A stretch of 64,000 bases of DNA from Frankiales bacterium (GTDB lineage: Bacteria; Actinomycetota; Actinomycetes; Mycobacteriales; SCTD01): NCBI GenBank assembly GCA_025965475.1, contig JAOPWV010000077.1, positions 4,313 to 68,312 on the forward strand, given 5' to 3'. Position 1 is the stretch's first letter; each line of letters begins with the position of its first letter. The translations under genes were made by a program, and so were the position numbers. Positions 44,523 through 61,240 of the stretch are shown in pieces. The notes beneath the pieces are model-generated. The model was not told the origin of the DNA, did not search any database, and worked only from the letters and a program-made list of their open reading frames with translations.

Positions 44523-45230
44523 CTAGGGCTTGGGCGCCAGTCGCCGCAGCCCCGCCACGTCCACTCCTGCCGTGAGCGTGACCCGCTCGGCGGCCGCCAC
44601 GGCGGCAGCGTCCCCCTCGCGCAGCAGCACCAGGCTTGCGCCGGCGGCCAGTGCCGTCAGCAGCACCGACGCGCCCAGGGGGTCGCCCGGGACCAGGCTG
44701 GTGAGCAGCCGGTCGCCGCGACCGACCCCGTCCAGGAGGCGGACCGGCCGGCCGCCGGCCTCGACCACCGGAGCGGCCGGCCGCGGGCCGCCGTAGTGGT
44801 CGGCGTACGACGGAACCTCGCGGGCGTAGTCGAGCACCGAGCCCGGCAGGTCGCCCGCCGGGGCGCCCAGAGGGTGACCGGACAACGCGAGGACGTCATC
44901 CACCCCGGCGTCCAGTGCCGCCTCGGCGTCCTGCGCGGCGACGAAGGCCGCGCCGCAGCCGGCCAGGTCACCGGCGTCCTCGACCAGGACGACGGTCGCG
45001 CCCGTGGCCGCGCCGGCGAGCAGCAGCGCCACCGTCTGCCAGTGCAGCGGCAGGAGCAGGCCGACCCGGTCCGGGCGCCCGAGCGCGTCGACGAGCAGGT
45101 TGGCGGACTTGGCCACCCAGTTGGCGGTGGTCGCGCCGGACAGCTCGACCCGCCCCGGCCCGTCGTACAGGGTCAGGAGGGGTTGCGCGGGATCCCGGTC
45201 ACCGGCCAGTCCGCCGGTGAGCTCGGTCAG
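44523..45230 (-). CDS. TIGR03089-family protein (acyl-adenylate-enzyme-like remnant fold, conserved next to LCP)
   Basis: LLTLYDGPGRVELSGATTANWVAKSANLL is typical of the family. There is no ATG/GTG/TTG near the expected N-terminus. The best candidate start is the CTG at 45230, overlapping the LCP stop (CTGA). Confidence 0.7.
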   Translation of the reverse strand: MTELTGGLAGDRDPAQPLLTLYDGPGRVELSGATTANWVAKSANLLVDALGRPDRVGLLLPLHWQTVALLLAGAATGATVVLVEDAGDLAGCGAAFVAAQDAEAALDAGVDDVLALSGHPLGAPAGDLPGSVLDYAREVPSYADHYGGPRPAAPVVEAGGRPVRLLDGVGRGDRLLTSLVPGDPLGASVLLTALAAGASLVLLREGDAAAVAAAERVTLTAGVDVAGLRRLAPKP

Positions 45231-46894
45231 GGTGCGCAGGGGTCGTCCAGGGCGGTGCTGACCTTCGGCGGCGTGCTCGCGGTCGCGCTGGAGGTGCCGG
45301 TCGGGGTGCCGCTCAGGGTGACCGCCTGCGCCGCGGTGTACGACGTGCCGAGCACGACCTGCAGGACGTTGCCCAGCGCCGGGTCGGACTGCAGGGCGGC
45401 GCCCGGGATGGCGGCGGCCAGGGTACGTGCCGAGTCGGCCTTGGTCGGGCCGTACGACACGATCGTGCCCGTGGCGCCGGACCCGCGGGTCTGCGGGTCG
45501 CCGACCACCTGGAAGCCGAGCTGGCCCAGCTCGCCGGCCGCGCGGCGGCCCAGGCCGTTGATGCCGGAGCCGTTGTAGACCTGCACGCGGATCGCGGAGG
45601 GCGGCACGATCAGGCCGGCGGGCGCGGTGCTGGCGGACGCCTTCGGGGCCGGCGTGCCCGGCGCGATGTCCTGGCGGATCTCGGAGAACAGTTCGTCGTT
45701 CTTGGTTTTGTCGAGCAGCACGACCGAGCCGAGGCCAGGCAGGTAGCCGTCGATGGTGCTGACGTGGACCGTCGTGAAGATGACGTTGCCGGCGCCGAGG
45801 TTGCGCATCCGCAGGGCCAGCGAGCGCATGGTGCCGAAGTCGAGGTTCTCGTCGGCTTGCAGCGACGCCGTGGCGACGTTGAGGAACCCGTTGAGCTTGA
45901 ACGGGTTGGCCAGCGTGCCGGCCGAGAGCACCTTGCGCACCATGGCGCCGATGAACTGCTGCTGCCGTTTGATCCGGTCGATGTCGCCGTTGGCCAGGCC
46001 CTTGCGCTGCCGGACGAAGGACAGGGCGACCGCGCCGCTGATGTGGTGCTTGCCCGCGGTGAGGTTGATGCCCGAGTCGTGCTCGACCGCCGGCTTGGAC
46101 AGACACACGTCGACGCCGCCGAGCTTGTCGACCATCGACTGGAAGCCCTGGAAGTCCACCTGCAGGTAGTGGTCGATCTGTACGCCGGTGAACTGCTGCA
46201 CGGTGGCGATGAGCAGTTTGGGGCCGCCCGTGGCGAACGCGGAGTTGATCCGGTCCTGGCGGGCGTTGTGGACCTTCCCGGTCGTGGGGTCGGTGAACTC
46301 AGGGATGTCCACGATCGAGTCGCGCGGGAAGCTGACCAGCTGCACCTTGTCGCTGTTTCCGCCGTACAGGTGCGCGAGGATCACGGTGTCCGAACGCTGC
46401 CCGGTCACGAACGTGGCGCCGGAGCCCTGCACGCCCTGGCCGGCCTTGAGGTTGCCGCGGCTGTCGGAGCCGACGATGAGGAAGTTCTGCGCGTTGTTCG
46501 GCGCGGCGGCAACCGGCTGCTGGCCCGGCAGGGTGCCGAGGATGCCCTTGAGCTTGGTGATGTTGCCCTCGTAGTGGCCGACGAGGAAGTACCCGGTGAC
46601 CGCGACGGCCAGCACGCTGATCGAGGCCAGCACGGCGATCCACGAGAGCACCCGGGCGGCGCGGCGGTGGCGCTTGCCCTTGGGACCCTCCGGGGCGACC
46701 TGCCGCGTCGGAGGCCGCAGCGGCGGACGGGGCGACGCGTGACGCCCGGGCGTGCCCGGCGGGCGCGGCGGGACGCCGCCGCGACCACGCGGGTCGAGGT
46801 GGGGCGGCAGTGGTCGGGGCGACGGCGGGTACGGCTCGGAGGACGGCTGCGACGGGTTGCTTCCGCCCGCCCTCCAGTCCCGTGGGTCGCTCAC
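45227..46894 (-). CDS. LytR-CpsA-Psr (LCP) family glycopolymer ligase with C-terminal LytR_C domain
   Basis: 555 aa. Pro-rich cytoplasmic N-terminus, one TM helix, NFLIVGSDSR...RSDTVILAHL...SFPRDS core, and a C-terminal LytR_C-like region. Confidence 0.9.
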   Translation of the reverse strand: MSDPRDWRAGGSNPSQPSSEPYPPSPRPLPPHLDPRGRGGVPPRPPGTPGRHASPRPPLRPPTRQVAPEGPKGKRHRRAARVLSWIAVLASISVLAVAVTGYFLVGHYEGNITKLKGILGTLPGQQPVAAAPNNAQNFLIVGSDSRGNLKAGQGVQGSGATFVTGQRSDTVILAHLYGGNSDKVQLVSFPRDSIVDIPEFTDPTTGKVHNARQDRINSAFATGGPKLLIATVQQFTGVQIDHYLQVDFQGFQSMVDKLGGVDVCLSKPAVEHDSGINLTAGKHHISGAVALSFVRQRKGLANGDIDRIKRQQQFIGAMVRKVLSAGTLANPFKLNGFLNVATASLQADENLDFGTMRSLALRMRNLGAGNVIFTTVHVSTIDGYLPGLGSVVLLDKTKNDELFSEIRQDIAPGTPAPKASASTAPAGLIVPPSAIRVQVYNGSGINGLGRRAAGELGQLGFQVVGDPQTRGSGATGTIVSYGPTKADSARTLAAAIPGAALQSDPALGNVLQVVLGTSYTAAQAVTLSGTPTGTSSATASTPPKVSTALDDPCAP

Positions 46895-47033
46895 CGGCAG
46901 TGCTCTCCTCGTGTCGGGGTCTCATCCCGAGGACGTGCGATAGCGCGGCAGGGTTCCCTCAGCGCGCACCCCAGGTTACCGGGGGTGACCTGAGGTGGCG
47001 CTGTGCCGCGCCAGGGCGGCTAACCTGCGGCGC

Positions 47034-48098
47034 ATGAAGGCACTGGTCCTGTCCGGTGGCGCCGGCACGCGTCTGCGCCCCATCACCCACACGAGCGCCA
47101 AGCAGCTGGTCCCGGTCGCGAACAAGCCGGTGCTGTTCTACGGCCTCGAGGCGATCCGCGATGCGGGGGTCACGGACGTCGGCATCATCGTCGGCGACAC
47201 GGCCGCCGAGATCGAGGCCGCGGTCGGCGACGGCAGCGCGCTCGGGATCCGGGTGACCTACATCCGCCAGGAGGCACCCCTCGGGCTGGCGCACTGCGTG
47301 CTCATCGCCCGTGACTTCCTCGGCGACGACGACTTCGTCATGTACCTCGGCGACAACTTCATCATCGGCGGCATCACCGAGCTCGTCGCGGAGTTCCAGG
47401 CCGAGCGGTACGACGCCCAGATCCTGCTGACCCGCGTCGACAACCCGTCGCAGTTCGGCGTCGCGGAGCTCGGGCCCGACGGGCAGGTCTGCACGCTCGT
47501 CGAGAAGCCCCAGGAGCCCAAGAGCGACCTGGCCCTGGTCGGCGTCTACATGTTCACGCCGGTGATCCACGACGCCGTCATGGCGATCAAGCCGTCCGGG
47601 CGGGGCGAGCTGGAGATCACCGACGCCATCCAGTGGCTGATCGACGAGGGCAGGACCGTCAGCCCGCACCTGGTCACCGGCTACTGGAAGGACACCGGCC
47701 GGCTCGAGGACATGCTCGAGTGCAACCGCAAGGTGCTCGAGTCGCTCGAGCCGTCGGTGCGCGGGACGGTCGACGCCGAGTCCCGGGTGATCGGCCGGGT
47801 GGTCGTCGAGGAGGGCGCCGTCATCGAGCGGTCCACGGTCCGGGGGCCGGCGATCATCGGCCGCGACACGGTCATCCGCGACACGTACGTCGGCCCGTTC
47901 ACGTCGATCTACTTCGGGTGCACCCTCGAGGACACCGAGATCGAGCACTCCATCGTGCTGGAGCAGTCGACGATCCGGGGCGTCCGCCGGATCGAGGACT
48001 CGCTGATCGGCAAGGAGGTGGAGGTCGCCCCGTCGTCCGCCCGCCCGCGGGCGCACCGGCTCATGCTCGGCGACCACTCCAAGGTCTCCATCGCCTGA
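47034..48098 (+). CDS. rmlA: Glucose-1-phosphate thymidylyltransferase (long form)
   Basis: MKALVLSGGAGTRLRPITHTSAKQLVPVANKP, with a left-handed beta-helix C-terminal half. 354 aa from the ATG at 47034. Confidence 0.9.
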   Translation: MKALVLSGGAGTRLRPITHTSAKQLVPVANKPVLFYGLEAIRDAGVTDVGIIVGDTAAEIEAAVGDGSALGIRVTYIRQEAPLGLAHCVLIARDFLGDDDFVMYLGDNFIIGGITELVAEFQAERYDAQILLTRVDNPSQFGVAELGPDGQVCTLVEKPQEPKSDLALVGVYMFTPVIHDAVMAIKPSGRGELEITDAIQWLIDEGRTVSPHLVTGYWKDTGRLEDMLECNRKVLESLEPSVRGTVDAESRVIGRVVVEEGAVIERSTVRGPAIIGRDTVIRDTYVGPFTSIYFGCTLEDTEIEHSIVLEQSTIRGVRRIEDSLIGKEVEVAPSSARPRAHRLMLGDHSKVSIA

Positions 48099-48128
48099 GC
48101 GCACTGCGATCTCTGGGATACTGAGCCG

Positions 48129-49115
48129 ATGCGTGTCTTCGTGACCGGCGGCGCCGGCTTCATCGGGTCCCACTTCGTGCGTCAGCTGCTGACTGACGCC
48201 TACCCGGCGTACGCGGGCGCCGAGGTGACCGTCTACGACAAGCTCACCTATGCCGGGAACCTCGAGAACCTCGTGCCGGTGGCCGACTCGCCGCGGTACC
48301 GGTTCGTGCAGGGCGACATCGTCGACGGTGCCCAGCTCGACAAGGAGCTGCCCGGTCACGACCTGGTCGTCAACTTCGCCGCCGAGACCCACGTCGACCG
48401 GTCCATCACCGGCGCGCAGGACTTCGTCGTCACCAACGTGCTCGGCGCGCAGACCCTGTTCGACGCCTGCCTGCGCAACGGGATCCCGCGGGTCGTGCAG
48501 ATCGGCACCGACGAGGTCTACGGCTCGATCTCCGCGGGCTCGTGGACCGAGAACGAGCCGCTGCTGCCGAACTCGCCGTACTCCGCCGCGAAGGCGGGCG
48601 CGGAGCTGCTCGCCCGCGCGTACGCCGTGACGTACGGGCTCAACATCTCGACGACGCGCTGCTCCAACAACTACGGGCCGTACCACTTCCCGGAGAAGGT
48701 CATCCCGCTGTTCGTGACCAACCTCATCGACGGCAAGAAGGTGCCGCTGTACGGCGAGGGGCTCAACGTCCGCGACTGGCTGCACGTCGACGACCACTGC
48801 CGCGGCATCGCACTGGTCGCCGAGAAGGGCGACAAGGGCGAGAGCTACAACATCGGCGGTGGCCGCGAGCTGTCCAACCGGGAGCTCACCGAGGCGCTGC
48901 TCGCGGCCTTCGGGGTCGGCTGGGAGATGGTCGAGCACGTCGAGGACCGCAAGGGCCACGACCTGCGCTACTCGGTGGACCACTCGAAGCTCGGCGCCAT
49001 GGGCTACGCGCCGCAGCACACCTTCGAGGACGGGCTGGCGGAGACGATCGCCTGGTTCCGCGCCAACGAGGCCTGGTGGCGGCCGCTCAAGGAGAAGGCG
49101 GCGCTCGGCTCGTGA
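48129..49115 (+). CDS. rmlB: dTDP-glucose 4,6-dehydratase
   Basis: 328 aa. VTGGAGFIGSHF, TDEVYG, YSAAKAG (YxxxK). Confidence 0.95.
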   Translation: MRVFVTGGAGFIGSHFVRQLLTDAYPAYAGAEVTVYDKLTYAGNLENLVPVADSPRYRFVQGDIVDGAQLDKELPGHDLVVNFAAETHVDRSITGAQDFVVTNVLGAQTLFDACLRNGIPRVVQIGTDEVYGSISAGSWTENEPLLPNSPYSAAKAGAELLARAYAVTYGLNISTTRCSNNYGPYHFPEKVIPLFVTNLIDGKKVPLYGEGLNVRDWLHVDDHCRGIALVAEKGDKGESYNIGGGRELSNRELTEALLAAFGVGWEMVEHVEDRKGHDLRYSVDHSKLGAMGYAPQHTFEDGLAETIAWFRANEAWWRPLKEKAALGS

Positions 49116-50017
49116 GCCTCGCCCTCCTCGTCACCGGGGCCGGCGGACAGCTGGGCAGCGACCTGCTCGAGGCGGTCCGGACCTCGCGGGACGTCTTCGC
49201 CCGGGGGCTCCTGCGCAAGGACCTCGAGCTCACCGACCCGGCAGCCGTGCAGGACATGCTCCTGGGCTGGGAGCGGATCGTGCGCGCCGACAACCCCGAG
49301 CACCGGCTCGTCGTCATCAACGCGGCGGCCTACACGGCCGTCGACGCGGCGGAGACCGACGAGGACATGGCGTACGCCGTGAACGCCACCGCACCCGCGT
49401 TGCTCGCGGCGTCCTGCGCCCGCATCGGCGCCCGGCTCGTGCACGTCAGCACCGACTACGTGTTCCCCGGTGACGCCGCCCGGCCGTACGAGGTCGGCGA
49501 CCCGACCGGCCCGAAGAGCGCCTACGGGCGCACCAAGCTGGCCGGTGAGCTGGCGGTCCGCGAGATCCTGCCCGACGCGTCCCACGTGGTGCGCACGGCG
49601 TGGGTGTACGGCGCCACCGGGCAGAACTTCGTCAAGACGATGGTCCGGCTGGAGAAGGAACGCGAGACGGTCAGCGTGGTCGACGACCAGCGCGGCTCGC
49701 CCACCTGGTCACGGGACCTGGCGAACGGGCTGCTCGCCCTTGCCGGCTCGGACGCACCGGCCGGGACCTACCACGCGACGAACGCGGGCGACACCACCTG
49801 GCACGGGTTCACCCGCGCCGTCTTCGAGGAGCTGGGCGCCGACCCGGGGCGGGTGCTCGCCACGACGACCGACGCGTTCCCGCGGCCCGCGCCCCGCCCG
49901 GCATACAGCGTGCTGTCGCCGAGCGCCTGGGAGCAGGCCGGTCTGCCGCCGCTGCAGGGTTGGCGGGAGGCCCTCGCCGAGGCGTTCAGCACCTCAGGGA
50001 CGGCGCTGCGCGGCTGA
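49112..50017 (+). CDS. rmlD: dTDP-4-dehydrorhamnose reductase
   Basis: The GTG overlaps the rmlB stop. LLVTGAGGQLG, STDYVFPG, YGRTKLAGE. Confidence 0.88.
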   Translation: MSLALLVTGAGGQLGSDLLEAVRTSRDVFARGLLRKDLELTDPAAVQDMLLGWERIVRADNPEHRLVVINAAAYTAVDAAETDEDMAYAVNATAPALLAASCARIGARLVHVSTDYVFPGDAARPYEVGDPTGPKSAYGRTKLAGELAVREILPDASHVVRTAWVYGATGQNFVKTMVRLEKERETVSVVDDQRGSPTWSRDLANGLLALAGSDAPAGTYHATNAGDTTWHGFTRAVFEELGADPGRVLATTTDAFPRPAPRPAYSVLSPSAWEQAGLPPLQGWREALAEAFSTSGTALRG

Positions 50018-50029
50018 CGCCGCCGGACG

Positions 50030-51208
50030 TCAGCGCCGGCGGCCGAGCAGGCGGCGCAGCCCGCGCAGCAGCCGCATCGCCAGGTGGGCACGCTCGTCGA
50101 GGGTGCGCACCAGCACCGGCCGCAGCGCGACCCGCCGGTCGAGGAGCGCGGCCTTCTCGTCCGTGGTGCGGTGCAGGTCGGCCAGCAGGTGGCTGTTGTG
50201 CATCCGGAGCGTCTCGAGCTCCTGGGTCAGCTGCTGCAGGACGGTGAGCGGGTAGTACCGGCCCTCCGCGGCCGCGGCCGCCTGCTCGCGGGCCTCCTCC
50301 TCGCGCGCCCACGCGGCGAGGGTGTCCTGCTCGTCGAGGACGGCCTTCATCGGGTGACCCCAGAAGAAGGCGAACAGCGTCCGGTCGGGGTCCTCCGTCG
50401 TCCACGCCTCGTCGGCGGCGAGGACCTGCTCGACGACGGCGTCCCGCTCCGGGCCCGGGGTCCCGTGCACCGCGCTGTTGAACGACAGGACCGGGTAGGC
50501 GAGGGCGCCCCCGATCGGGTTGAGCTCCTCGAGCCGGAAGTACCGCCGGACCGTGTCGAGGATCAGCTCGGAGTGGATCGCCTCGGTCGGGTCGCCGGCC
50601 AGCATGGTCGGCAGGTGCGGGTAGTTCGGGGCGGAGCGGAACGCCTCCGGCAGCTGCTCGACGAGTTCCTGCGCGGCCTGCCACTGCGCATACCCGTACT
50701 GGTTGCGGTGCGGCCCGACGTAGTCGACGGAGGCGAAGACGCCGTCCGCCGGCAGCACCTCGCAGACCCGCCTGAGCACCTTGTCGAGGTAGGCGATGTG
50801 GTGCGCGGCGGCGAAGTTGACGACGAGGTCGTAGCCGTCCTCGGGCAGGTCGGCGGTGTTGATGTCGCGGGCGTAGTAGCGCGCGGGCAGGCCCGCGACG
50901 GCCGCCGCCTTGCGCGCCTGGTCGAGCAGCTCGTCGGAGATGTCGGTGCCGACCGCCTCCTCGACGATCCCCGCCTCGAGCAGCTGACGCTCCACCCAGC
51001 CGTTGCCGCAGTTCAGGAACAGCGCCTTGCGGAACGTCCGCCCGCCGGTGACGTCCTTGAGGTGGGTGTACCAGTCGGTGTCCGGCTTGCCGGTGGCGCG
51101 ACGTTCGATGTACGCCGCCACCTGCGGGAGGTCGTTCCAGTAGCCGCCGCCGTAGTACACCGACGAGTCCTGGGCGACGGTGTAGCTGCGGGTGTCCGGT
51201 TCGGCCAT
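50030..51208 (-). CDS. Class I SAM-dependent methyltransferase with ~100-aa C-terminal coiled-coil and basic amphipathic terminus (WbdD-like candidate)
   Basis: 392 aa. The FLNCGNGWVER...GTDIS...DLVVNF Rossmann methyltransferase core is followed by heptad-like EEEAREQAAAAAE...LQQLTQELETLRMHNSHLLADLHRTTDEKAALLDRR and a terminal LLRGLRRLLGRRR. Confidence 0.8.
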   Translation of the reverse strand: MAEPDTRSYTVAQDSSVYYGGGYWNDLPQVAAYIERRATGKPDTDWYTHLKDVTGGRTFRKALFLNCGNGWVERQLLEAGIVEEAVGTDISDELLDQARKAAAVAGLPARYYARDINTADLPEDGYDLVVNFAAAHHIAYLDKVLRRVCEVLPADGVFASVDYVGPHRNQYGYAQWQAAQELVEQLPEAFRSAPNYPHLPTMLAGDPTEAIHSELILDTVRRYFRLEELNPIGGALAYPVLSFNSAVHGTPGPERDAVVEQVLAADEAWTTEDPDRTLFAFFWGHPMKAVLDEQDTLAAWAREEEAREQAAAAAEGRYYPLTVLQQLTQELETLRMHNSHLLADLHRTTDEKAALLDRRVALRPVLVRTLDERAHLAMRLLRGLRRLLGRRR

Positions 51209-51272: not shown

Positions 51273-51587
51273 TCACTGCGCCGTCGGCGGCCCGGAGGTC
51301 TGCGACCTGGCGCGCCGGTTCCACAGGGTGACGGCGCCGAGCGCGACCCCGAGGCCCGCCCCGACCGACGCCGCGAGGAAGGGGAGGGCCATGCCGGTGT
51401 GCTGCGGCGCATACAGGAAGGCGAGCGGGAACGACAGCACGATGCCGACGACGAGCCCGCCCAGTGCCGCGACGCCCAGGAAGAAGAGCACCGCGAGGGG
51501 CTTGCCGCCGCGCGGGACCGGGACGTCGCCGGTCAGCACGCCGCGGTCCAGCTGGCGGAGCCACGGTTGGACGCGCATGTTCGGCAT
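51273..51587 (-). CDS. Hypothetical membrane protein
   Basis: 104 aa with 2-3 TM helices and codon bias like the neighbours. No family recognised. Confidence 0.5.
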   Translation of the reverse strand: MPNMRVQPWLRQLDRGVLTGDVPVPRGGKPLAVLFFLGVAALGGLVVGIVLSFPLAFLYAPQHTGMALPFLAASVGAGLGVALGAVTLWNRRARSQTSGPPTAQ

Positions 51588-51633
51588 CTTCTACCGCCGT
51601 GGGCCGGTTGGACAGCGATGCGTCAGCTCGTCG

Positions 51634-52200: not shown

Positions 52201-52285
52201 CTGCGGGGGTGTCCTGTCCGCCCGGCCGCAGCACCCGTCAGAGGACGCCTTCGACCAGGCACGTCTCGATGAGTGGGTGCCGGTC

Positions 52286-52386
52286 GAAGGTCTCGTCCGC
52301 CTGCCGACGTGAATCGGCGGGCTGCCGGCACCGGGTTCCCGCGGGAACCAGCATGTCGATGCCGGCATTGAGGACTACTCCCCTTC
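52286..52386 (-). promoter_or_regulatory. yybP-ykoY (Mn2+) riboswitch aptamer
   Basis: Minus-strand RNA: GAAGGGGAGUAGUCCUCAAU-[GCCGGCA-UCGACAUGCU-GGUUCCCGCGGGAACC-CGG-UGCCGGC]-AGC-[CCGCCGAUUCACGUCGGCAGG]-CGGACGAGACCUUC. It has the conserved GGGGAGUAG, the UCGNCA.../CGG internal loop, and GAGACCUUC closing P1 with GAAGG. A 14-bp hairpin at 52248-52290 re-uses CCUUC and would serve as the expression platform. Confidence 0.8.
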
Positions 52387-52502
52387 GCGCAAGATCGTAG
52401 CGGCTCGCCCCCCGGGCTCCCCTTTGTGGAACGTCCACAGCACCAGGGTGCTGAGGAAGTTCCGAAAGCCCGTGGGAGGAGGGAGGCGGGCAGACTGGTG
52501 CG

Positions 52503-52952
52503 ATGCCGTTGTGGGGGGAGTACGCGCCGAGCAGCGAGCAGTGGGTGCGCGACGAGGTGGAGCACTACGAGCGCACCGACGGGACCGCGTGGGGCGACCG
52601 GCCGGTCGTCGTCCTCACCAGCCGTGGTGCCGTCTCCGGCAAGCTCCGCAAGACGCCGTTGATGCGCGTCGAGCACAAGGGGATCTACGCCGCTGTGGCC
52701 TCGATGGCGGGCGCGGGCAGCCACCCGGCCTGGTACCACAACGTGCTCGCCGAGCCGCGGGTCGAGCTGCAGGACGGCCCGCGCCGGCAGGACATGATCG
52801 CCCGGGAGCTGTCCGGCCCGGAGCGGGCGGCCTGGTGGTCGCGCGCCTGCACGGTCTTCCCGTCGTACGTGGACTACCAGAGCAGGACCCGGCGCCGGAT
52901 CCCGGTGTTTCTGCTGGAGCCGCTGCCTCAGGAGCCCAGCGCGAGCCGGTAG
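52503..52952 (+). CDS. Deazaflavin (F420)-dependent nitroreductase family oxidoreductase (Ddn/DUF385-like)
   Basis: 149 aa. LTSRGAVSGKLRKTPLM...GSHPAWYHNVLAEPRVELQ...IPVFLLEP. Confidence 0.85.
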   Translation: MPLWGEYAPSSEQWVRDEVEHYERTDGTAWGDRPVVVLTSRGAVSGKLRKTPLMRVEHKGIYAAVASMAGAGSHPAWYHNVLAEPRVELQDGPRRQDMIARELSGPERAAWWSRACTVFPSYVDYQSRTRRRIPVFLLEPLPQEPSASR

Positions 52953-53992
52953 GCCTGCCGGGTCAGCTCGGCGCACCGCTCCCAGGTGAACTGTGCGGCA
53001 TGCCGGCGCCGGGCCCGCGGGTCGCCCGGGTCGCCCAGCACCCGTTCCAGGGCGGCGGCGAAGGCGGCGGGGGAGCCCTGCTCGGCGTACGACGTGACCG
53101 TGCCGCCGACCTCGCGCAGCACCGGCAGGTCGCTTGCGACCACGGGCGTGCCGGCCGCCAGCGCCTCGACGACCGGGATGCCGAATCCCTCGTCGCGGCT
53201 GGGCAGGACGAGCGCCGAGGCGCCCGCGACGACGGCGCGCAGGCGCTCGTCGTCCAGGAACCCGGGGGTGACGCAACCGGAGACGTCCACCTGCTCGCCC
53301 CAGCCCGTGGGCCCCACCAGGACGAGCGGAGGCGCGTCGGGGAGGAGCCGGTGCGCGGCGAGCAGCGTGCCCAGGTCCTTGCGTGGCTCGAGGGTCCCGA
53401 CGAAGACGAGGTACGACGGGGGCAGCCCGAGCGACGCGCGCAGGGCCTCGTCGGGCGGTGCGGCGGTGTACCACTCGGGGTCCACGCCGAGCGGCGTCAC
53501 GACGATCGGGGCGCGGACGTCGTACTCCTCGCGCACCTGCTCGGCGACCGCGGTGCTCGGCGTGATCACGACCGACGCGCGGCGCAGCGACCGGGGGACG
53601 AGCGTGCGGTAGCGGGCGCTGGCACTGCTGACGGTCTCGGGCATCCGCAGGTACGACAGGTCGTGGATGGTCACGACCCCGGCGGCGCGGCGCAGCGGCG
53701 GGAGCACGAAGTTGGTGGCGTGGAAGACGTCCAGCTTGCCGGCGAGCAGCTCGACGGGCGGCCACTCGACCCGGGCCCAGGCCTCCTGGAGGCCGCGGGC
53801 CGGCGCCGGTCGGGCGGCCACCCGGACGCCTTCGGGTACGACGGCCGGCAGCGCCTCGCGGCCGCGGAAGGTGAACGCCGTGGCCACGAGCTCGTCGTCG
53901 TGTGCGGCCAGCGCCCGCAGCAGCGCGAGGGTGTAGCGGCCGACCCCGGTCCTGTTGCCCAGCAGCGGGGTGGCGTCGAGCCCGATCCGCAT
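52928..53992 (-). CDS. GT4-family (GT-B) glycosyltransferase
   Basis: 354 aa from MRIGLDATPLLGNRTGVGRY, ending with PSRDEGFGIPVVEALAAGTPVV (E-x7-E). Confidence 0.88.
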   Translation of the reverse strand: MRIGLDATPLLGNRTGVGRYTLALLRALAAHDDELVATAFTFRGREALPAVVPEGVRVAARPAPARGLQEAWARVEWPPVELLAGKLDVFHATNFVLPPLRRAAGVVTIHDLSYLRMPETVSSASARYRTLVPRSLRRASVVITPSTAVAEQVREEYDVRAPIVVTPLGVDPEWYTAAPPDEALRASLGLPPSYLVFVGTLEPRKDLGTLLAAHRLLPDAPPLVLVGPTGWGEQVDVSGCVTPGFLDDERLRAVVAGASALVLPSRDEGFGIPVVEALAAGTPVVASDLPVLREVGGTVTSYAEQGSPAAFAAALERVLGDPGDPRARRRHAAQFTWERCAELTRQAYRLALGS

Positions 53993-54002
53993 GGCCGCCA
54001 CG

Positions 54003-55559
54003 TCAGTCGAGCAGCCGGTGCTTGTCGACGATGTCGTGCCACCGGTCGGCGAAGGCGTCCTCGCTGTACTCCTGCGCGCGGTGGGTCGCTGCGGCGGACA
54101 GGCGCGCGCGCAGGTGCTCGTCCTCGGCGACCTCCGCGGTGCGGGCCAGCAGCTGGGCCGGCGTCGTCCACCGGAAACCGTCGACGTTCTCGCGCACGAT
54201 CTCCTTCTGCCCGGCTCGGTCGATGACGACGGGCACGCAGCCACCGGCCATCGCCTCGACGGTCGTCATGCCGAAGTGCTCGTTGGCCCAGGGCGTCTTG
54301 TGCTCGTCCTCGCTGTAGCCGGTGGCGGACCAGAACACCGACGACGTCGACAGCAGCTGCTCGACGAGCTTGCGCGGGACGTTGGCGATCACCTCGACCG
54401 GCAGGCCGGCGCCGGCGGCCCGCACCTGGTCGACGTAGTTCTGCTGTGAGTCCTCCATGCCGCCGAGGACGTACATCCGCCAGTCCCGCGGGATGACCCC
54501 GGACCGGATGCCCTCGGCGAAGAACTGCACCATCTCGAGCTGGCGCTTGGCGTGGCCGAGGCCGGGCGAGAAGAACCGGCCCACGGTGATGACGGCCTTC
54601 TCGCGCTCCGGCGCGGGATGCAGCCGCTGGACCTGGATGGGCGGGAACAGCAGTTCGGCCTCGGTCTTCCACAGCTGCTGGATGTAGCCCCGGGTGTATT
54701 CGCTGTTGGCCATCACCGTGTCGTAGCCCTCGAGGAACGACAGGTTCCGCGGGTCGCGCATGAGCCACGGGAAGCGCTGCGCCACCCGGGCCCGCGGGCC
54801 GTAGTGGCCGCCCTCCAGGCGCATCCGGCTCACCGCGACGCCCAGCCGGCGCCGGTCGTCGCCGCCCGGGGAGAACGTCTCGGTCCGGAAGTGCAGCTCG
54901 GTGCCCCGGACGGAGGCCGGGAAGTCCAGATGGTGCGTGGTGAACTGCGAGCCCACCTCGATCTCGGCGAGCACGTGGCCCTGCTCGTCGCCGATGGTCA
55001 GCACCCGGGGCTCCGGCATGCCGGGGCCGCCGAGCTCCATCCGGATGCGCCGGGCCTTCGCGTCGGGCGACAGCGTCAGGACCGCGTCCTCCGTGGTCCA
55101 GGCCCACTGCCGCAGCCGACCGCCCTCGGGGGGGAACCAGCCGACCCCGTAGTCGACCCCGCCGGTGTGCGCGCGCAGCAGCGGCCCGAGGTTCCGGGTG
55201 GCGGCTCGCCGCCAGGGCGACAGGTCGGCGTCGAACGGCGTCGGGAAGTAGCAGAGGTACGCCGCGTGCCTGGCCCTCGGCCGCAGCCGGCTGGTGTACG
55301 TCCCGTTGACGAACAGGTCGTACTCCTCGGACACCGCGGCCAGGTGCAGGTCGCCGCGGTCCGGCTCGACACGCAGGGTGCACCGCGACAGGTCGAGGCC
55401 GAGGTGGTCGGCGAGCTCGTCCTTGTCGACCTCGGTGTGGCCGATGAGGTCGACCTGGACGCCGTCCTGGGACAGCACTTCGGCGATCATCCCGGAGTGG
55501 CGTTCGCCGCCACCCTGGCTGTGCCAGAAGCGGTCGTAGATCGCGGCCCGCTTGGTCAT
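54003..55559 (-). CDS. Glycosyltransferase with GT4-type C-terminal half and uncharacterised N-terminal ~250 aa
   Basis: 518 aa from MTKRAAIYDRFWHSQGGGERH. The C-terminal EHFGMTTVEAMAGGCVPVV motif is present. The ATG overlaps the upstream GT2 stop (ATGA). Confidence 0.85.
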   Translation of the reverse strand: MTKRAAIYDRFWHSQGGGERHSGMIAEVLSQDGVQVDLIGHTEVDKDELADHLGLDLSRCTLRVEPDRGDLHLAAVSEEYDLFVNGTYTSRLRPRARHAAYLCYFPTPFDADLSPWRRAATRNLGPLLRAHTGGVDYGVGWFPPEGGRLRQWAWTTEDAVLTLSPDAKARRIRMELGGPGMPEPRVLTIGDEQGHVLAEIEVGSQFTTHHLDFPASVRGTELHFRTETFSPGGDDRRRLGVAVSRMRLEGGHYGPRARVAQRFPWLMRDPRNLSFLEGYDTVMANSEYTRGYIQQLWKTEAELLFPPIQVQRLHPAPEREKAVITVGRFFSPGLGHAKRQLEMVQFFAEGIRSGVIPRDWRMYVLGGMEDSQQNYVDQVRAAGAGLPVEVIANVPRKLVEQLLSTSSVFWSATGYSEDEHKTPWANEHFGMTTVEAMAGGCVPVVIDRAGQKEIVRENVDGFRWTTPAQLLARTAEVAEDEHLRARLSAAATHRAQEYSEDAFADRWHDIVDKHRLLD

Positions 55560-56902
55560 CGGGTCGCCACCAGCCACTCCTCGAGCCGCCGGCGCGACAC
55601 GACGGACTGCCGTGCGAGGGCCCGGCGCTTGAGGATCATGACGGGTAAGAGTCGCAGGAACGACGCGAGCACCTTCAACCGCATGAGGGTCGGCCGGACG
55701 GCGGGCCGGCTGCGTGCCTTGAGGGACTGCCGCACGCTGCGCAGCGCGATGGACCCCGTCGTCAGCGGGTAGCGCAGGACCTCCCTGACCGCGAACCGCA
55801 GGCTCGCGTCCTTCACCAGCATCAGCAGGCGGTTGCGGTCGGTGTGGAAGACGAACGTCGGGGACCATTCGACGCTGCTGGCCGAGTGGATGTGCCGGAC
55901 GACGGCCTTGGGCTCGTAGCGGATCGACCAGCCCGCCGCGCGCAGCCGCCACGACAGGTCGGTGTCCTCGTAGTACAGGAAGAAGTCGTCGTCGAACCAG
56001 TCAGCCTGGCGGCCGGCCTCGGTGCGGAAAGCGACCGCGCAGCCGCACAGTGCGAAGACCTCGGTGGGCTCGTCGTACTGACCGGTGTCGACGTCCTGGT
56101 AGCCGCGGTCGGCGCCGTAGCCGGCGGTCAGGACGATGCTGCCGACGTTGTTGACGACGTCCACGACCGGTACGCCGGCCGGCACCTCGACGGTGTGCTC
56201 CGCCGGTACTGCCGTGACCGGCAGGGTGGCCGCGCCGCCGTCCCAGGACAGGGTGGCGGTCTTCTCGCGCTCGCCGGCCCAGCGGACCGAGATGCGGACC
56301 GGCCCGGCTGCGTCCGGCAGCGGGACCAGCAGCTCGCCCTCCGGACGTGCCCAGCGGAACCGGCCCTCGCCGCTGCCCTCCGGTCCCCAGGTGAGCCGCT
56401 CCATGAGAACCCGCTCGGTGACGTCCTCGTCGCCGACACGGATCCGGAACAACTGCAGCCCGAGGTCGCGGGGGTCGTGCGGGCCGGGGGAGAAGCCGGT
56501 GGTCTGCAGGCGCAGCCGCAGGAACCGCGGCTGGAAGACCACCTTGCTCGTCACGGCGGCGAGCCGCTCGTTGCCCGGCTCCTCCAGCGGGGCGAGCAGT
56601 TTCTCCAGCCAGTCGGGCTCGGGGGTCGCGTCGTTGTTGAGCAGAACGGCATACGGCGTCGTGATCTGACGCAGCGCGGTGTTGTTGCCGCCGGCGAAGC
56701 CGAGGTTCTCGCTGTTGCGCAGGATCCGGACGTCCGGGTACTCGCGTTCGAGCAGGGCCACCGACCCGTCCGCCGAGGCGTTGTCGACGACCCACACGTC
56801 GAACGGCGCACCGGTCTGCTGGCGGGCCAGCGCGTCCAGGCAGGGCCGAAGCAGGCGCTCGCCGTTCCAGTTGACGATGACGACGGTGGCGCGCGGCGTC
56901 AT
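55556..56902 (-). CDS. GT2-family glycosyltransferase (rhamnosyltransferase-like) with internal insertion
   Basis: 448 aa. VVIVNWNGERLLRPCLDAL...VVDNASADGS...LLNNDA, with an insert of about 150 aa before the CGCAVAFR...ED(T)DLSWR region. Confidence 0.88.
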   Translation of the reverse strand: MTPRATVVIVNWNGERLLRPCLDALARQQTGAPFDVWVVDNASADGSVALLEREYPDVRILRNSENLGFAGGNNTALRQITTPYAVLLNNDATPEPDWLEKLLAPLEEPGNERLAAVTSKVVFQPRFLRLRLQTTGFSPGPHDPRDLGLQLFRIRVGDEDVTERVLMERLTWGPEGSGEGRFRWARPEGELLVPLPDAAGPVRISVRWAGEREKTATLSWDGGAATLPVTAVPAEHTVEVPAGVPVVDVVNNVGSIVLTAGYGADRGYQDVDTGQYDEPTEVFALCGCAVAFRTEAGRQADWFDDDFFLYYEDTDLSWRLRAAGWSIRYEPKAVVRHIHSASSVEWSPTFVFHTDRNRLLMLVKDASLRFAVREVLRYPLTTGSIALRSVRQSLKARSRPAVRPTLMRLKVLASFLRLLPVMILKRRALARQSVVSRRRLEEWLVATR

Positions 56903-58098
56903 GCGGCCCCGCTCCGGGGCAGGACCGCGCTCGTGGCCGGTACGGCGAGGATGCCCGGCAGGTCGCCGCCGCGGCCCTTCACGGCCTCGTCGAACCGGGC
57001 CACCGCAAGCGGGTAGCCGGTCTCCGGGTCCTCGACCTGGACGGCGAGGATGAACGAGCCGTTCAGGGCCGGGGCGTGCTCGACCACGAACTCGACCGTG
57101 TAACGGCCGGGCACGGCCGGCACGCCCTGCCCGGGTGGGGTCCGCATCGAGAAGATCGGGATGTCACCGGCGCCGACGAGCACGACGATCACGTCGCCGG
57201 CGAACACGTCGGCGGCAGCGAGCACCTCGACCTCGACGCAGACGTGCAGCGGCTGCCCGGCGAGCACCTCCGCCGTACGCGGGCCGCCAGCGGTCAGCGA
57301 CGGGATCGCGGCGTGCACGTACGCGCCGCGCGGCTCGGGGGCGGGCGGCTCGCCGACCGGCCGGTCGGTGCCGAGGATCTTGCGCAGCGTGCCGACGGCG
57401 TACGACGGGTCGCCGTCGTACTGCACGCGGCCGTGGTCCACGACGATGCCGCGCGTGCACAGCTGCTCGACGAGGTCGAGCGCGTGCGTGACGAACAGGA
57501 TGGTCTTGCCGGCCTGCTGGAACTCGGTGATCTTCGCGAGGCACTTGCGGGCGAAGGCCTCGTCCCCGACCGCGAGGACCTCGTCGACGAGCAGGACGTC
57601 CGGGTCGACGTGCACGGCGATGGAGAAGGCCAGCTTGACGTACTCACCGGACGAGTAGTGCTTCACCGGGTCGTCGATGCGCTCGCCCTGCTCGGAGAAC
57701 TCGACGATCGAGTCGAGGAGCCCGTCGACCTCCTTGCGCGACAGCCCCAGCAGGGCCGCGTTGAGGTAGACGTTCTCCCGGCCGGTCAGCTCGCCGTTGA
57801 AGCCGGCGCCGAGTTCGAGCAGGGAGGCGATCCGGCCCTCCACCTGCACCTCGCCGGAGGTCGCCCGCAGGATGCCGGCGAGCACCTTGAGCAGCGTGGA
57901 CTTGCCGGCGCCGTTGGGCCCGATGAGCCCGACGGTCTCGCCCTGCCCCACCGTGATGTCGACGTCGCGCAGCGCCCAGAACTCGCCCTCCGTCACGGCC
58001 TTGCGCCGCACGATGCGCTCCTTGAGCGACGTCGCCCGCTGCTTGTGCGTGACGAAGCGCTTGGAGACGCCCCGCGCGCTGATGACCGGCTGCGTCAC
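56899..58098 (-). CDS. Polysaccharide ABC exporter ATP-binding protein (Wzt/TagH-like) with ~150-aa C-terminal extra domain
   Basis: The GTG at 58098 overlaps the permease stop. Walker A GPNGAGKST, signature YSSGEYVKL, Walker B LLVDEVLAVGD. A beta-rich C-terminal domain follows (residues ~250-399). Confidence 0.9.
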   Translation of the reverse strand: MTQPVISARGVSKRFVTHKQRATSLKERIVRRKAVTEGEFWALRDVDITVGQGETVGLIGPNGAGKSTLLKVLAGILRATSGEVQVEGRIASLLELGAGFNGELTGRENVYLNAALLGLSRKEVDGLLDSIVEFSEQGERIDDPVKHYSSGEYVKLAFSIAVHVDPDVLLVDEVLAVGDEAFARKCLAKITEFQQAGKTILFVTHALDLVEQLCTRGIVVDHGRVQYDGDPSYAVGTLRKILGTDRPVGEPPAPEPRGAYVHAAIPSLTAGGPRTAEVLAGQPLHVCVEVEVLAAADVFAGDVIVVLVGAGDIPIFSMRTPPGQGVPAVPGRYTVEFVVEHAPALNGSFILAVQVEDPETGYPLAVARFDEAVKGRGGDLPGILAVPATSAVLPRSGAA

Positions 58099-59006
58099 AG
58101 CTCTTCCGCGAAGTCCGCCTGCATCCGGGTGAACACCCGGCGCGCGAACAGGAAGAGCAGCCCGGCGATGACGAACCCGATCGCCAGGTTGCGCAGGTAG
58201 AAGGCGTAGCCGGGATCGGCCAGGGCGTGGCCGATGGCGTGGGGTGGCTTGGTGTTGACGTAGCCGTCCTTGACGAAGATGGCCCGCTGGAAGGTCGTCA
58301 CGACCGTGGCCATCGGGTTGAGGAAGTACGCCCAGAACAGGTGGTACTGGTCGAGCTTGTCCTTCACCAGTGTCGAGGTGTAGAGGATCGGGTTGAGCCA
58401 GAACCAGACCAGCAGGGCGATCTCGACGGCGTGCGCGGTGTCGCGGTACCGGACGTTCAGCGCCGAGACCAGGTAGCTGAAGGCGGTCGAGAACAGCAGG
58501 AGCAGCGCCAGCGCCGGGACGATGAGCAGGAAGGCCGGGCTGAAGTCGTGCCGGAAGATCGTGGTGACGAGCAGCAGAACGACCAGCTGCAGGACGAAGT
58601 GCACGAGGGCATAGCCGACCGCCGACAGCGGCAGGACCTGGAGCGGGAAGCGCACCTTCTTCACCAGACCGGCGTTGCCGACGACGGTGCCGGACGCGGT
58701 CGACACCGCGGCGGAGAAGGCCGTCCAGGGCAGCAGGCCGCACATCAGGAAGATGGCGAAACCCGGGACGCCGTTGTTGAGCACCACGCCGAAGATCAGG
58801 TAGTAGATGCCCATGAGCAGCAGCGGATTGGCCAGGCTCCACGCGAAGCCGAGCACGGACCCCTGGTACTTGACCTTCAGGTCCTTGCGCACGAGCTGAC
58901 TGAGCAGCTCCCAGCTGACCCGGCTCTGCGCCCGGGCGCGGCGGCGCGCCAGTTCGCTCCGGTCGCCGAGCGGTGGGACGGCCGCGCCAGGAGCCTCAGT
59001 GGCCAC
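58095..59006 (-). CDS. ABC-2 type polysaccharide exporter permease (Wzm/TagG-like)
   Basis: 303 aa. VRKDLKVKYQGSVLGFAWSLANPLL is the hallmark start of Wzm/TagG. 6 TM helices. Confidence 0.9.
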   Translation of the reverse strand: MATEAPGAAVPPLGDRSELARRRARAQSRVSWELLSQLVRKDLKVKYQGSVLGFAWSLANPLLLMGIYYLIFGVVLNNGVPGFAIFLMCGLLPWTAFSAAVSTASGTVVGNAGLVKKVRFPLQVLPLSAVGYALVHFVLQLVVLLLVTTIFRHDFSPAFLLIVPALALLLLFSTAFSYLVSALNVRYRDTAHAVEIALLVWFWLNPILYTSTLVKDKLDQYHLFWAYFLNPMATVVTTFQRAIFVKDGYVNTKPPHAIGHALADPGYAFYLRNLAIGFVIAGLLFLFARRVFTRMQADFAEEL

Positions 59007-59149
59007 GCGGGTCAGCCTCCAGGGCGTCTATCCGGGGTGCCGTCCGGCAGGACAGCCGGAGCGGGCAGCAGGCGCACGAGCCGGTCGCCGGGCTTGCCGT
59101 GGAGCATAACCAGGCGTTCGCGCCGCGGCCGGTCGCTACCCTTTGCGCC

Positions 59150-61240
59150 GTGACCTCGACGCTGGCCGGTCCCACCTCGTCCGGCGCACTCGGGGACGAG
59201 GCGCCCGCCGCCGACCACCGGGTCCTGACCGGTACCGATCTGCTCGCCGGTGGTGCGGTGCTGGCCGTGGCGCTGCTCGCCTGGGCGAGCCTGGTGCTGG
59301 CCCATCTGGGGGTCCACTCGCTTGCCGGTGCCGTCGGCCTCGGCCTCGCGATGCTCGGCGTGGTCGGGGTGCTGGCCGTGCTGGCCAGTCGCCGGCACAG
59401 GGTGCGCGTGGCCGCGGACCCGGCCGGGATCGTGGTGGCGGTCCTGTGTGCCGCGGTCGCCGCGGCCCTGACCTTCCCGGGCTTCTCCTACGGCGTGACC
59501 GACAAGGATCCCGGCGGCTACGTCGCGCACGCGGTCGAGATCGCGCACAGCGGCGACTACACGTTCACCGATCCCCTGCTCGCCGATCGCCTGCCGAACG
59601 GCCAGCCCCTCGACGTGCAGTTGGCTTCGCCGGGCGCCCGGTTCCCCGGCGTGTGGATCAAGGACGCGCCCACCGGCAAGATCGTTCCGCAGTTCTACCA
59701 CCTGTGGCCCGCCCTGCTGGCGACCGCGTACGACGTCGGCGGGTACGACGGGATCCGCTTCGCCGTACCGCTGATGGGCGTCCTCGCGGTGCTCCTGCTG
59801 GTCGCCCTCCTGCGGCGGCTGGGCGATGCCGTCGCCGGTCCGACGGCGGGGCTCGTCGCCGCGGGGGCAGGCGGATTGCTGCTCGCGACGAACATGCTGC
59901 AGGTCTGGCAGGCGCGGTACCCCACGACAGAGGTCCTGGCGGAGGCGCTGTACCTCGCCTCCCTGCTCGGCATCGTCATCGCCCTGCAGACCGGGTGGCG
60001 ACCCGCCGCCGGCCTGGCCGGGCTGTTCGTCGGCATCGGCTGGCTCAACCGCGCGGATGCCCTCCTGCTGGTCCTGCTCTCGGTCGGCGTGGGCGCCGCT
60101 CTGCTCGCGACCCGGCGCTGGGACAGCCGGGCGACCTGGTACGCCGCCGGCCTCGCCGTCGTCGTGCCGCACGCCGTGCTCCAGGCGTACGACCTCGCCC
60201 GGTTCTACACGCTCGGCAACAACGTCCCGACCCTGTCCACGGTCGTCGCGGTCACCGTCGGGCTGTTCGCGGCCGCGCTGGTCTGCCGGCTCCTCCTCCG
60301 CCGGCCGATCGCCTGGCTGCTGGGGCTGCTGGAGCACCGCTCCACCCAGGTCGTGGCGGGGCTCGTGGTCCTGGTGGGAGCCACCGGGCTGATGGCGCTC
60401 GGGTTCCTGCGGGCCCGGCTCTTCGGCGCCGACTACTTCCTCTACAACGGCGCGAGCGTCCGCTCGTACGACGAGCAGATCCTGACCCGGCTGGCCTGGT
60501 TCTTCACCGTGCCGGGGTTCGTCCTCATGCTGCTCGGGCTCGCCGTGGTGGCTGTCCGGCGGTGGAGCGGCGCGGTCTGGGCCGTCGTCGTCCCGTCGCT
60601 GCTGCTGTTCGCCGTCTACGCGTACACCGCCAAGAACTCCACGCGGCTGCTGTGGTGGACGCGTCGCTACGTCCCGACCGTCCTGCCCGGGATCCTGGTG
60701 CTCGTCGCGCTCGCCCTCGCGTTCGCGTTCGTCTGGCGGTTCCGCGGGCGCGCGGTCCTGCGCGTGCCGTCCGTGCTGGCGCTGGTCGCGTTGGTCGCCG
60801 TCTTCCTCTCCCAGTCCTGGCCGCTGCGGGCGCACGACGAGTGGAAGGGCTCCCTCGAGATCTCCCAGCAGATCGCCGACCTGTCCGGTCACGCCCGTGG
60901 CGTCTACCTCTGGGAGTACCAGCCCTGCTGCAACGGCACGACCCAGCTGTTCGCGACCCCGGTGTGGCTCGCCCACGGCGAGCTGTCGGTGCTGCTGCCC
61001 CTGGCCGTCGAGAACCGCACCCCGATCGTCAAGGAGTACGCCGCCCACTTCACGGGCGAGCCGCTGTTCATCGTGGCCGGCAAGAGCGGCCTGCCCGCCG
61101 GTCTCGATCCCGCCAGCGTCACGCAGGTCGCGCACATCACCGCGGCCCTGCCGATGTGGGACGAGAGCGACACCGAACGGCCGTCGAAGGCACGCCGGGT
61201 CCCGGTCGAGCTCCGGGTCTGGCGCGTCAACGGCACGTGA
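59150..61240 (+). CDS. Large polytopic membrane protein, possible GT-C fold glycosyltransferase (ArnT/PMT-like)
   Basis: 696 aa from the GTG at 59150, taken from inside the merged ORFs. About 12-14 TM helices. The first loop carries VTDKDPGGY. A soluble C-terminal domain of about 130 aa follows. Confidence 0.75.
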   Translation: MTSTLAGPTSSGALGDEAPAADHRVLTGTDLLAGGAVLAVALLAWASLVLAHLGVHSLAGAVGLGLAMLGVVGVLAVLASRRHRVRVAADPAGIVVAVLCAAVAAALTFPGFSYGVTDKDPGGYVAHAVEIAHSGDYTFTDPLLADRLPNGQPLDVQLASPGARFPGVWIKDAPTGKIVPQFYHLWPALLATAYDVGGYDGIRFAVPLMGVLAVLLLVALLRRLGDAVAGPTAGLVAAGAGGLLLATNMLQVWQARYPTTEVLAEALYLASLLGIVIALQTGWRPAAGLAGLFVGIGWLNRADALLLVLLSVGVGAALLATRRWDSRATWYAAGLAVVVPHAVLQAYDLARFYTLGNNVPTLSTVVAVTVGLFAAALVCRLLLRRPIAWLLGLLEHRSTQVVAGLVVLVGATGLMALGFLRARLFGADYFLYNGASVRSYDEQILTRLAWFFTVPGFVLMLLGLAVVAVRRWSGAVWAVVVPSLLLFAVYAYTAKNSTRLLWWTRRYVPTVLPGILVLVALALAFAFVWRFRGRAVLRVPSVLALVALVAVFLSQSWPLRAHDEWKGSLEISQQIADLSGHARGVYLWEYQPCCNGTTQLFATPVWLAHGELSVLLPLAVENRTPIVKEYAAHFTGEPLFIVAGKSGLPAGLDPASVTQVAHITAALPMWDESDTERPSKARRVPVELRVWRVNGT

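Follow-up and report, generated by a model that had tools for sequence, protein, structure and literature searches.

The DNA analysed here is a 64,000-nucleotide stretch from a Frankiales bacterium (contig JAOPWV010000077.1; hereafter the window), and its subject is a methyltransferase gene (50030..51208, minus strand) within a glycan locus that extends from ~45.2 to 63.6 kb of the window, as delimited by third-position GC content and profile searches. An earlier sequence-only reading of this window had proposed that the gene encodes a WbdD-like enzyme, one that would cap an exported wall polysaccharide with a methyl group and set its chain length as a molecular ruler. The open reading frame (ORF), which starts with ATG and specifies 392 amino acids, is a real gene, since its codon-position GC (0.74/0.45/0.97) is typical of genes in DNA of 72% GC such as the window; Pfam matches and an AlphaFold2 (AF2) model of the product back the call. 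A scan for promoters and terminators near the gene was uninformative in such GC-rich DNA.

On one side of the methyltransferase gene lie a gene for an LCP (LytR-CpsA-Psr) ligase that joins glycopolymers to peptidoglycan (45227..46894, minus strand; PF03816, PF13399, TIGR00350) and genes for dTDP-rhamnose synthesis, namely a long-form rmlA, rmlB and rmlD (46995..50017, plus strand; TIGR01208 at 478 bits, TIGR01181 at 410 bits and TIGR01214 at 289 bits, above the NCBIfam equivalog cutoffs). The 367-aa RmlA was also considered as a ManB-type guanylyltransferase, an assignment rejected because NCBIfam identifies it as a true long-form RmlA; rmlC was not seen in the window. The methyltransferase gene and rmlD converge, their stop codons lying 12 bp apart. 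On the opposite side, ~5.7 kb away, are the genes of an ATP-binding cassette (ABC) exporter, wzm and wzt, at the head of an operon wzm-wzt-GT2-GT1-GT4 that runs from 59006 down to 52928 on the minus strand with overlapping stop and start codons. It encodes the ABC-2 permease Wzm (58095..59006; PF01061), the 399-aa ATPase Wzt (56899..58098; PF00005, with ~154 aa beyond the nucleotide-binding domain, NBD), a 448-aa glycosyltransferase (GT) of the GT2 type (55556..56902; Pfam), a GT1-type protein of ~524 aa (54003..55577; Pfam), only the C-terminal ~170 residues of which match GT1 models, and a GT4 glycosyltransferase (52928..54001; Pfam, NCBIfam). The sequence-only reading had placed the methyltransferase gene between rmlABD and the exporter, which is correct as to its flanks, but it does not directly adjoin the exporter operon: the interval (51273-52952) holds genes for a 104-aa protein with two transmembrane segments (without homologous families), a GDT1 cation transporter and an F420H2-dependent quinone reductase, the first two on the methyltransferase strand (gaps of 64 and 46 bp) and the third on the opposite strand. 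Divergent from wzm are genes for two polytopic membrane proteins, one of 755 aa that is GT-C-like (58973..61240, plus strand; weak PMT_2, ~12 transmembrane-like segments) and one of 568 aa (ORF at 61237..62943, plus strand) for which family searches gave no match; both may be GT-C-type extracytoplasmic glycan modifiers. A hexapeptide acyltransferase gene also belongs to the locus. The methyltransferase is the only one found from 19 to 64 kb of the window and, glycosyltransferases aside, the only cytoplasmic tailoring enzyme in the locus.

The 392-aa protein is a class I S-adenosylmethionine (SAM)-dependent methyltransferase. Its residues 65-181 match generic class I models only (Methyltransf_25, Methyltransf_11 and Methyltransf_31, E 1e-12 to 3e-11; PF13649 at 49 bits, PF08241 at 48 bits and PF13847 at 43.8 bits, each above its cutoff), and NCBIfam returned nothing above any curated cutoff, with BioC, UbiG and a phthiocerol dimycocerosate (PDIM) methyltransferase as sub-threshold matches in the Pfam/NCBIfam searches. 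Confidence in the AF2 model, for which 112 relatives were used, is high (pLDDT 93.7, pTM 0.87), and the model shows a seven-stranded Rossmann-like fold. A methyltransferase core had been proposed at residues ~60-200, and this was right as to its class and too short as to its extent, because the catalytic fold in the model reaches ~residue 292 and includes strands 224-233 and 279-286. The SAM-binding Rossmann core (residues ~58-172; 50693..51037, minus strand), delimited by Pfam, by invariant columns in the 112 sequences and by alignments to YcgJ, RebM and AtmM from the PDB, contains a glycine-rich motif I (NCGNG, 66-70) that is invariant across the 112 sequences. The second half of the catalytic fold (residues ~173-292; 50333..50692, minus strand) is family specific according to the alignments and the AF2 secondary structure; the invariant residues listed for it are HRNQ (167-170), DPTE (206-209), H212, E214, R222-Y223, G233-G234 and D266. 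No transmembrane segment was predicted in the protein, which is probably cytoplasmic and peripheral to the membrane, and a member of an uncharacterised family.

The last ~100 residues had been read as showing a heptad-like Leu/Glu/Arg periodicity. In the AF2 model they form three separate helices (294-313, 323-357 and 362-391) instead of one long coil, and only the second of these has a heptad pattern. The first helix, together with a G-x-Y-Y-P turn (50249..50332, minus strand; alignment, AF2, register analysis), lacks a heptad pattern and has W300, E304, R307, E308, Y318 and Y319 invariant or nearly so. The second (50138..50242, minus strand), 35 residues long and modelled at pLDDT ~94, is a candidate short coiled coil with a leucine-zipper-like a/d register of 4-5 heptads (L324, L327, L331, L334, N338, L341, L345, T348, K352 and L355), in which Asn338 occupies an a position. 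A shuffle test of heptad periodicity in the C-terminal region gave p of about 0.07, a weak result because the region is Leu-rich; family-wide conservation of the a/d positions is the better evidence, since among the 112 relatives the hydrophobic occupancy of seven a/d positions is 0.8-0.98 and that of most other positions 0.1-0.45. The sequence of the helix is recognisably kept between Actinomycetota (QELETLRMHNSHLLADLH) and Bacteroidota (LELEELRMGNSHLKSDLH). Among 13 proteins of the locus, the methyltransferase is the only one with a heptad helix free of proline and glycine (score 0.65, against ≤0.28 for the other twelve). This helix probably allows the enzyme to oligomerise.

The third helix (362-392, ..LLRGLRRLLGRRR; 50033..50125, minus strand) brings the protein to an end in a strongly amphipathic basic stretch (...AMRLLRGLRRLLGRRR), just as the sequence-only reading had described. 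Over its last 18 residues the hydrophobic moment is 0.55-0.59 and the net charge +6/+7, and 93% of the 112 relatives keep a charge of at least +4 there. From moment and charge it is predicted to be a membrane-surface anchor that would hold the enzyme at the membrane. The length of the tail varies among relatives from 51 to 126 aa, and one of them (P0027) has ~21 extra residues in the helical region.

Kinship with WbdD was rejected on three grounds; the two proteins are related through the class I fold only. A phmmer search against all PDB sequences found YcgJ, RebM, AtmM and others, whereas WbdD was not matched at E ≤ 10. The profile built from 112 members of the family did reach WbdD, at E 0.03-0.06 (15.6-16.6 bits), but through the SAM-binding segment alone (profile positions 58-138) and at rank ~52, behind ~50 other methyltransferases. 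Foldseek of the model against the PDB did not place WbdD among the top 50, and put AtmM and RebM first (E about 1e-11). These two sugar 4'-O-methyltransferases (RebM, PDB 3bus; AtmM, PDB 6uv6) are the best structural matches and are also detectable by sequence. Both methylate a sugar hydroxyl, and they share with the window protein the class I fold and a His-His motif after strand 4 (H136-H137 in the window protein), which like D162 is invariant in the family; the surrounding region aligns to RebM and AtmM. The His-His and Asp are taken to be the catalytic residues of RebM, and H136-H137 and D162 may act likewise on a sugar hydroxyl. RebM and AtmM differ from the window protein in being soluble natural-product tailoring enzymes of ~270 aa, without the N-terminal extension, the HRNQ and DPTE motifs or the C-terminal helices, and their TM-scores to the model are only 0.38-0.59.

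The likeness to WbdD (Escherichia coli O8/O9a, Klebsiella O5/O3) is thus one of architecture and setting. In both proteins a cytoplasmic methyltransferase is followed by a helical segment of coiled-coil type and a membrane-associating C-terminus (predicted in the window protein), and both are encoded with wzm and wzt, the Wzt having a cap-binding domain, which in the window is a candidate one. WbdD methylates the non-reducing end of the chain, whereupon polymerisation stops and export is licensed (PMC3482155, PMC11231755, PMC9445017). Modal chain length changes with the dosage or the coil length of WbdD. The C-terminal region of WbdD, of ~250 residues, forms a trimeric coil of ~20 nm (~200 Å) (PMC3482155, PMC5082667), whereas helix 323-357 of the window protein would span ≤~5 nm (~52 Å). 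Unlike the window protein, WbdD has a kinase domain, and there is no specific kinship between the two in sequence or structure. The WbdD C-terminal region trimerises and recruits the polymerase WbdA, and the recurrent linkage of the window family to a pair of GT1 (~520 aa) and GT2 (~445 aa) genes is an indirect hint of something similar. The WbdD polymer goes to lipid A-core, while that of the window actinobacterium would go to peptidoglycan via LCP. Sequence kinship with WbdD is not a prerequisite for such a role: ORF6 of Klebsiella pneumoniae O7, a methyltransferase-kinase with a coiled coil and two GT2 modules, is a methyl-type terminator of a rhamnose-containing, ABC-dependent glycan that is unrelated to WbdD in sequence and still has a coiled coil (PMC11231755). 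Compared by description only, the window protein is a stand-alone 392-aa enzyme and ORF6 a multi-module one.

A coiled-coil protein of another kind was seen in ~10 Acidimicrobiaceae loci (e.g. L024, 13158-14417, minus strand), where its gene lies ~2.7 kb from that of the family member. It is 420 aa long, matches Methyltransf_24 weakly and has a coiled-coil region of ~110 residues, an SSSWRLTAPLR motif and a basic tail. It is architecturally nearer to WbdD than the window methyltransferase is, and the window has no homologue of it.

That the window Wzt carries an extra C-terminal domain, another point of the sequence-only reading, was borne out. The ~154-aa extension (56899..57360, minus strand) has no Pfam annotation, and a search of it with PF14524 (Wzt_C) gave no match at E ≤ 10. 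Aligned by hhalign with PF14524-positive Wzt domains from related loci, it reached 76% probability (E 2e-5, 109/154 columns). Its AF2 model is all-beta (pLDDT 90.3), and the best Foldseek matches in the PDB (TM 0.59-0.65, E 1e-4) were solved Wzt carbohydrate-binding domains (CBDs), namely those of Aquifex aeolicus (6o14, and 8dky with bound 3-O-methyl-mannose) and E. coli O9a (2r5o), as well as a Kdo-cap binder (5hno); the next matches, sandwiches of the RhoGDI/NPC2 type, score little lower. Like the CBDs of A. aeolicus, E. coli O9a and Raoultella O12, the window domain follows the NBD immediately and is a beta-sandwich of equal size, while its sequence identity to the solved domains is 15-17%. 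At least 135 Wzt-like ATPases (~400 aa, from metagenome-assembled genomes (MAGs) of Frankiales/Mycobacteriales type) share this C-domain, as counted from an alignment query (a word-based search had found only two proteins), and none of them has a Pfam label there; several are encoded on the same contigs as methyltransferase relatives. It is plausible, on the evidence of the models, that the domain is a divergent cap-binding domain of a subfamily invisible to Pfam. A longer variant occurs in an actinomycetotal MAG (L010, 16283-18448, minus strand), where the Wzt extension measures 477 aa and consists of the window-type C-domain plus ~320 further residues.

Relatives of the methyltransferase are numerous: a word search found at least 861, and in an exhaustive search there were 7675 hits at E ≤ 1e-3, with 405 representative clusters remaining at E ≤ 1e-30. 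To describe their surroundings we took 80 loci from species-representative genomes, all of them MAGs, spanning Actinomycetota (Frankiales, Mycobacteriales and many Acidimicrobiia), Eremiobacterota, Chloroflexota, Bacteroidota, a Calothrix, Acidobacteriota, Desulfobacterales and Gammaproteobacteria; 59 of these are long (≥15 kb), and their six-frame ORFs were searched with a hidden Markov model of Wzm. A wzm lies within 10 kb of the family gene in 20 of the 59 (34%), and within ~200 bp in six. The Wzt of these 20 loci has an extension of ~150 aa in 15 cases and of ~82 aa in two.

Among relatives on long contigs, the closest ones have the family gene between the wzm-wzt-GT genes and the rml/LCP genes. 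In one (L086, 69% identity) it stands between wzm-wzt-GTs and rmlD-rmlB-rmlA-LCP, as in the window; in the other, a Frankiales MAG (L001), it lies among LCP, rmlB/D, GT and wzm/wzt genes, 24 bp downstream of a gene for a 683-aa protein that is 61% identical to the 755-aa membrane protein of the window. The three-gene insertion of the window (104-aa protein, GDT1, quinone reductase) is absent from both. Elsewhere (L003) the family gene adjoins wzm-wzt in divergent orientation, with a Wzt that has a PF14524 Wzt_C domain, and in a Bacteroidota MAG it belongs to a cluster of GT, RgpF and wzm-wzt genes, there with a Wzt that lacks an extension.

The two glycosyltransferases next to wzt recur as well. 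Full-length orthologues of the GT2 (~445 aa) and of the GT1-type protein (~520 aa) are present in the window (54003-56902, minus strand), L001 (6467-7804 and 11151-12713), L005 (7051-9965) and L087 (5815-8678), at 27-69% identity; the GT2 recurs in 19/59 long loci and the GT1-type protein in 11/59, adjoining the methyltransferase gene in L001 and L005. This distribution suggests a conserved three-gene polymerase/tailoring module of methyltransferase, GT2 and GT1-type protein in Actinomycetota and Bacteroidota. Family members are also found fused (P0244, P0281, P0366, P0371, P0381, P0347) to a second methyltransferase, DUF4214, GT2 plus DUF4214 and, once, a radical-SAM/SPASM domain, with the GT2 fusion in P0371. 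These partners fit glycan tailoring, and they are not specific for termination.

The observed domain anatomy, the CBD-like fold of the Wzt extension and the conserved gene neighbourhood are the ground on which we favour, with doubt and confidence in about equal parts, the view that the methyltransferase is a cap-forming sugar O-methyltransferase that terminates an ABC-transporter-dependent, rhamnose-containing wall glycan. We are led to it by the AtmM/RebM-like fold, the basic C-terminus without a transmembrane segment, the position as lone methyltransferase of the locus, the CBD-like domain of Wzt, the conserved neighbourhood and the fusion to GT2; and since terminators characteristically carry C-terminal coiled coils (PMC11231755), the conserved four-heptad helix counts towards it too. 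In the mechanism that we infer, a polyprenyl carrier would bear the growing polymer on the cytoplasmic side of the membrane, where the GT2, GT1 and GT4 enzymes would assemble it with dTDP-rhamnose supplied by RmlABD. The basic amphipathic helix would keep the methyltransferase at the membrane, and the heptad helix would probably make it oligomeric; the enzyme would methylate a hydroxyl of the non-reducing terminal sugar. The terminal methyl group would block elongation and form the cap that the Wzt C-domain binds, and so license export by Wzm/Wzt; the LCP enzyme would then attach the exported polymer to peptidoglycan. The methyl-cap-dependent assembly put forward by the sequence-only reading stands as a functional analogy with the O-antigen systems (CBD-like Wzt, locus and tail), while the choice between termination and in-chain methylation is still a matter of inference. 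We would extend the scheme, with somewhat less than even confidence, to a phylum-spanning family of compact terminators (methyltransferase, four-heptad coil and basic anchor) that work with a GT2/GT1 polymerase pair and, in Actinomycetota, with a Wzt cap-binding subfamily that Pfam does not see.

Several observations weigh against a terminator. All 80 loci are from MAGs, no cultured organism among them having a close relative of the gene; a wzm within 10 kb is lacking in 66% of the long ones; and 34/59, mostly Acidimicrobiaceae, have neither wzm/wzt nor the GT pair nearby, the family gene standing there beside enolase, ppx and mazG. A relative with 61% identity (P0025) lies among genes for a penicillin-binding protein, GT87, ino1 and murJ, with no wzm/wzt nearby. 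Three linked Wzt proteins (L013, L080, L083) lack any extension, and the family is therefore not strictly CBD-dependent. Related clusters (L001, L003) carry up to four methyltransferases, any of which may be the one that caps. In the window itself, three unrelated genes, one of them on the other strand, separate the methyltransferase from the exporter operon; the Wzt C-domain carries F and K at positions that are conserved as Trp in the rest of its subfamily (GAGDIPVW.., FWVRSG); and one of the glycosyltransferases may, in place of the methyl group, supply a sugar as the cap.

Much of this would suit an O-methyltransferase of the same pathway that decorates internal residues of the repeat unit, with termination left to a GT-added cap sugar or with no cap at all. 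GT-rich clusters with a family gene and no nearby wzm/wzt (e.g. L087) are many, some linked Wzt proteins have no CBD, and several methyltransferases in one cluster, like the tandem methyltransferase fusions, are what one expects of tailoring enzymes; in Pseudomonas aeruginosa, moreover, the locus methyltransferases PA5457 and PA5459 resemble WbdD and need not be chain-length regulators of the WbdD type (PMC3560663). CBD-bearing Wzt proteins, however, belong to the cap-dependent branch, in which a terminal modification halts elongation and licenses export (PMC9445017). The CBD-like domain of the window Wzt accordingly implies a chain-terminal cap, for which the locus offers a single cytoplasmic tailoring enzyme besides its glycosyltransferases, and a coiled coil followed by a membrane anchor is a hallmark of terminators, not of simple tailoring enzymes. 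We consider in-chain methylation unlikely on balance, yet a serious competitor to capping.

The two remaining explanations are much harder to sustain. A true WbdD homologue, a ruler whose coiled-coil spacer sets the modal chain length, would share the order of catalytic domain, helical region and basic amphipathic C-terminus, and the variation in tail length and the longer helical region of P0027 are in its favour. Against it, besides the failure of the kinship searches described above, stand the 35-residue heptad helix set beside the ~20 nm WbdD coil, and the conservation of the helix sequence across phyla, which is unlike a pure spacer; together these leave the ruler unsupported, and the compact, confident monomer model agrees with helices that pack against the protein or one another, not with a free stalk. 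We regard this origin as very improbable. A methyltransferase for a small molecule, lipid or protein that merely adjoins the glycan locus, possibly acting with the GDT1 and small membrane protein genes, is improbable as well, if not to the same degree. It would account for the generic or sub-threshold family matches (BioC, UbiG, PDIM methyltransferase), the natural-product enzymes among the structural neighbours, the apparent co-direction with the GDT1 and 104-aa genes and the housekeeping surroundings of the Acidimicrobiaceae members. But in Actinomycetota, Bacteroidota, Eremiobacterota and Gammaproteobacteria the family gene is repeatedly linked to wzm/wzt, rml and the same two GT genes, far above the ~1% for a random 20-kb window (a background that is our own estimate and was not computed), a GT2 fusion exists, and the pairing with GDT1 and the small protein was not seen in L001, L003, L005, L086 or L087.

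How chains are terminated and licensed for export is well understood in a few Gram-negative O antigens and essentially unexplored in actinobacterial wall glycopolymers. Among the papers that we searched, none describes ABC export that depends on a cap, or a terminator, in Actinomycetota, which to that extent agrees with the earlier remark that this coupling has not been characterised there; the concept is a known Gram-negative paradigm extended to a new enzyme family and a new type of cell envelope. Were the terminator reading true, methyl-cap-licensed ABC export, documented in the cited literature for lipopolysaccharide O antigens, would be established for the LCP-attached wall polysaccharides of Gram-positive actinobacteria. 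In uncultured Actinomycetota, Eremiobacterota, Chloroflexota and Bacteroidota the family, with its ~400 representative clusters, would serve as a sequence marker of cap-dependent glycan pathways; a second subfamily of Wzt cap-binding domains, so far without annotation, would be recognised; and a minimal architecture would be at hand for testing how much coiled coil a terminator needs. If the protein is only an in-chain tailoring enzyme, the gain is limited to improving how a widespread 'SAM-dependent methyltransferase' is annotated.

To the left of the glycan locus, 19-45 kb of the window is devoted to general metabolism. Its gene order is reminiscent of the conserved mycobacterial region around Rv3264c-Rv3285, with acyl-CoA carboxylase subunits, purK-purE, acyl-CoA dehydrogenases, GtrA and UDP-glucose dehydrogenase, followed by LCP-rml; if that resemblance holds, the glycan genes would be appended to a conserved core cell-wall locus. 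Near the LCP end of the locus are a gene for a PilZ-domain protein, of the cyclic di-GMP receptor family (43072-43701, minus strand; ~1.5 kb away), and, directly adjoining the LCP gene, one for a 197-aa protein with no family match (44523-45116, minus strand).

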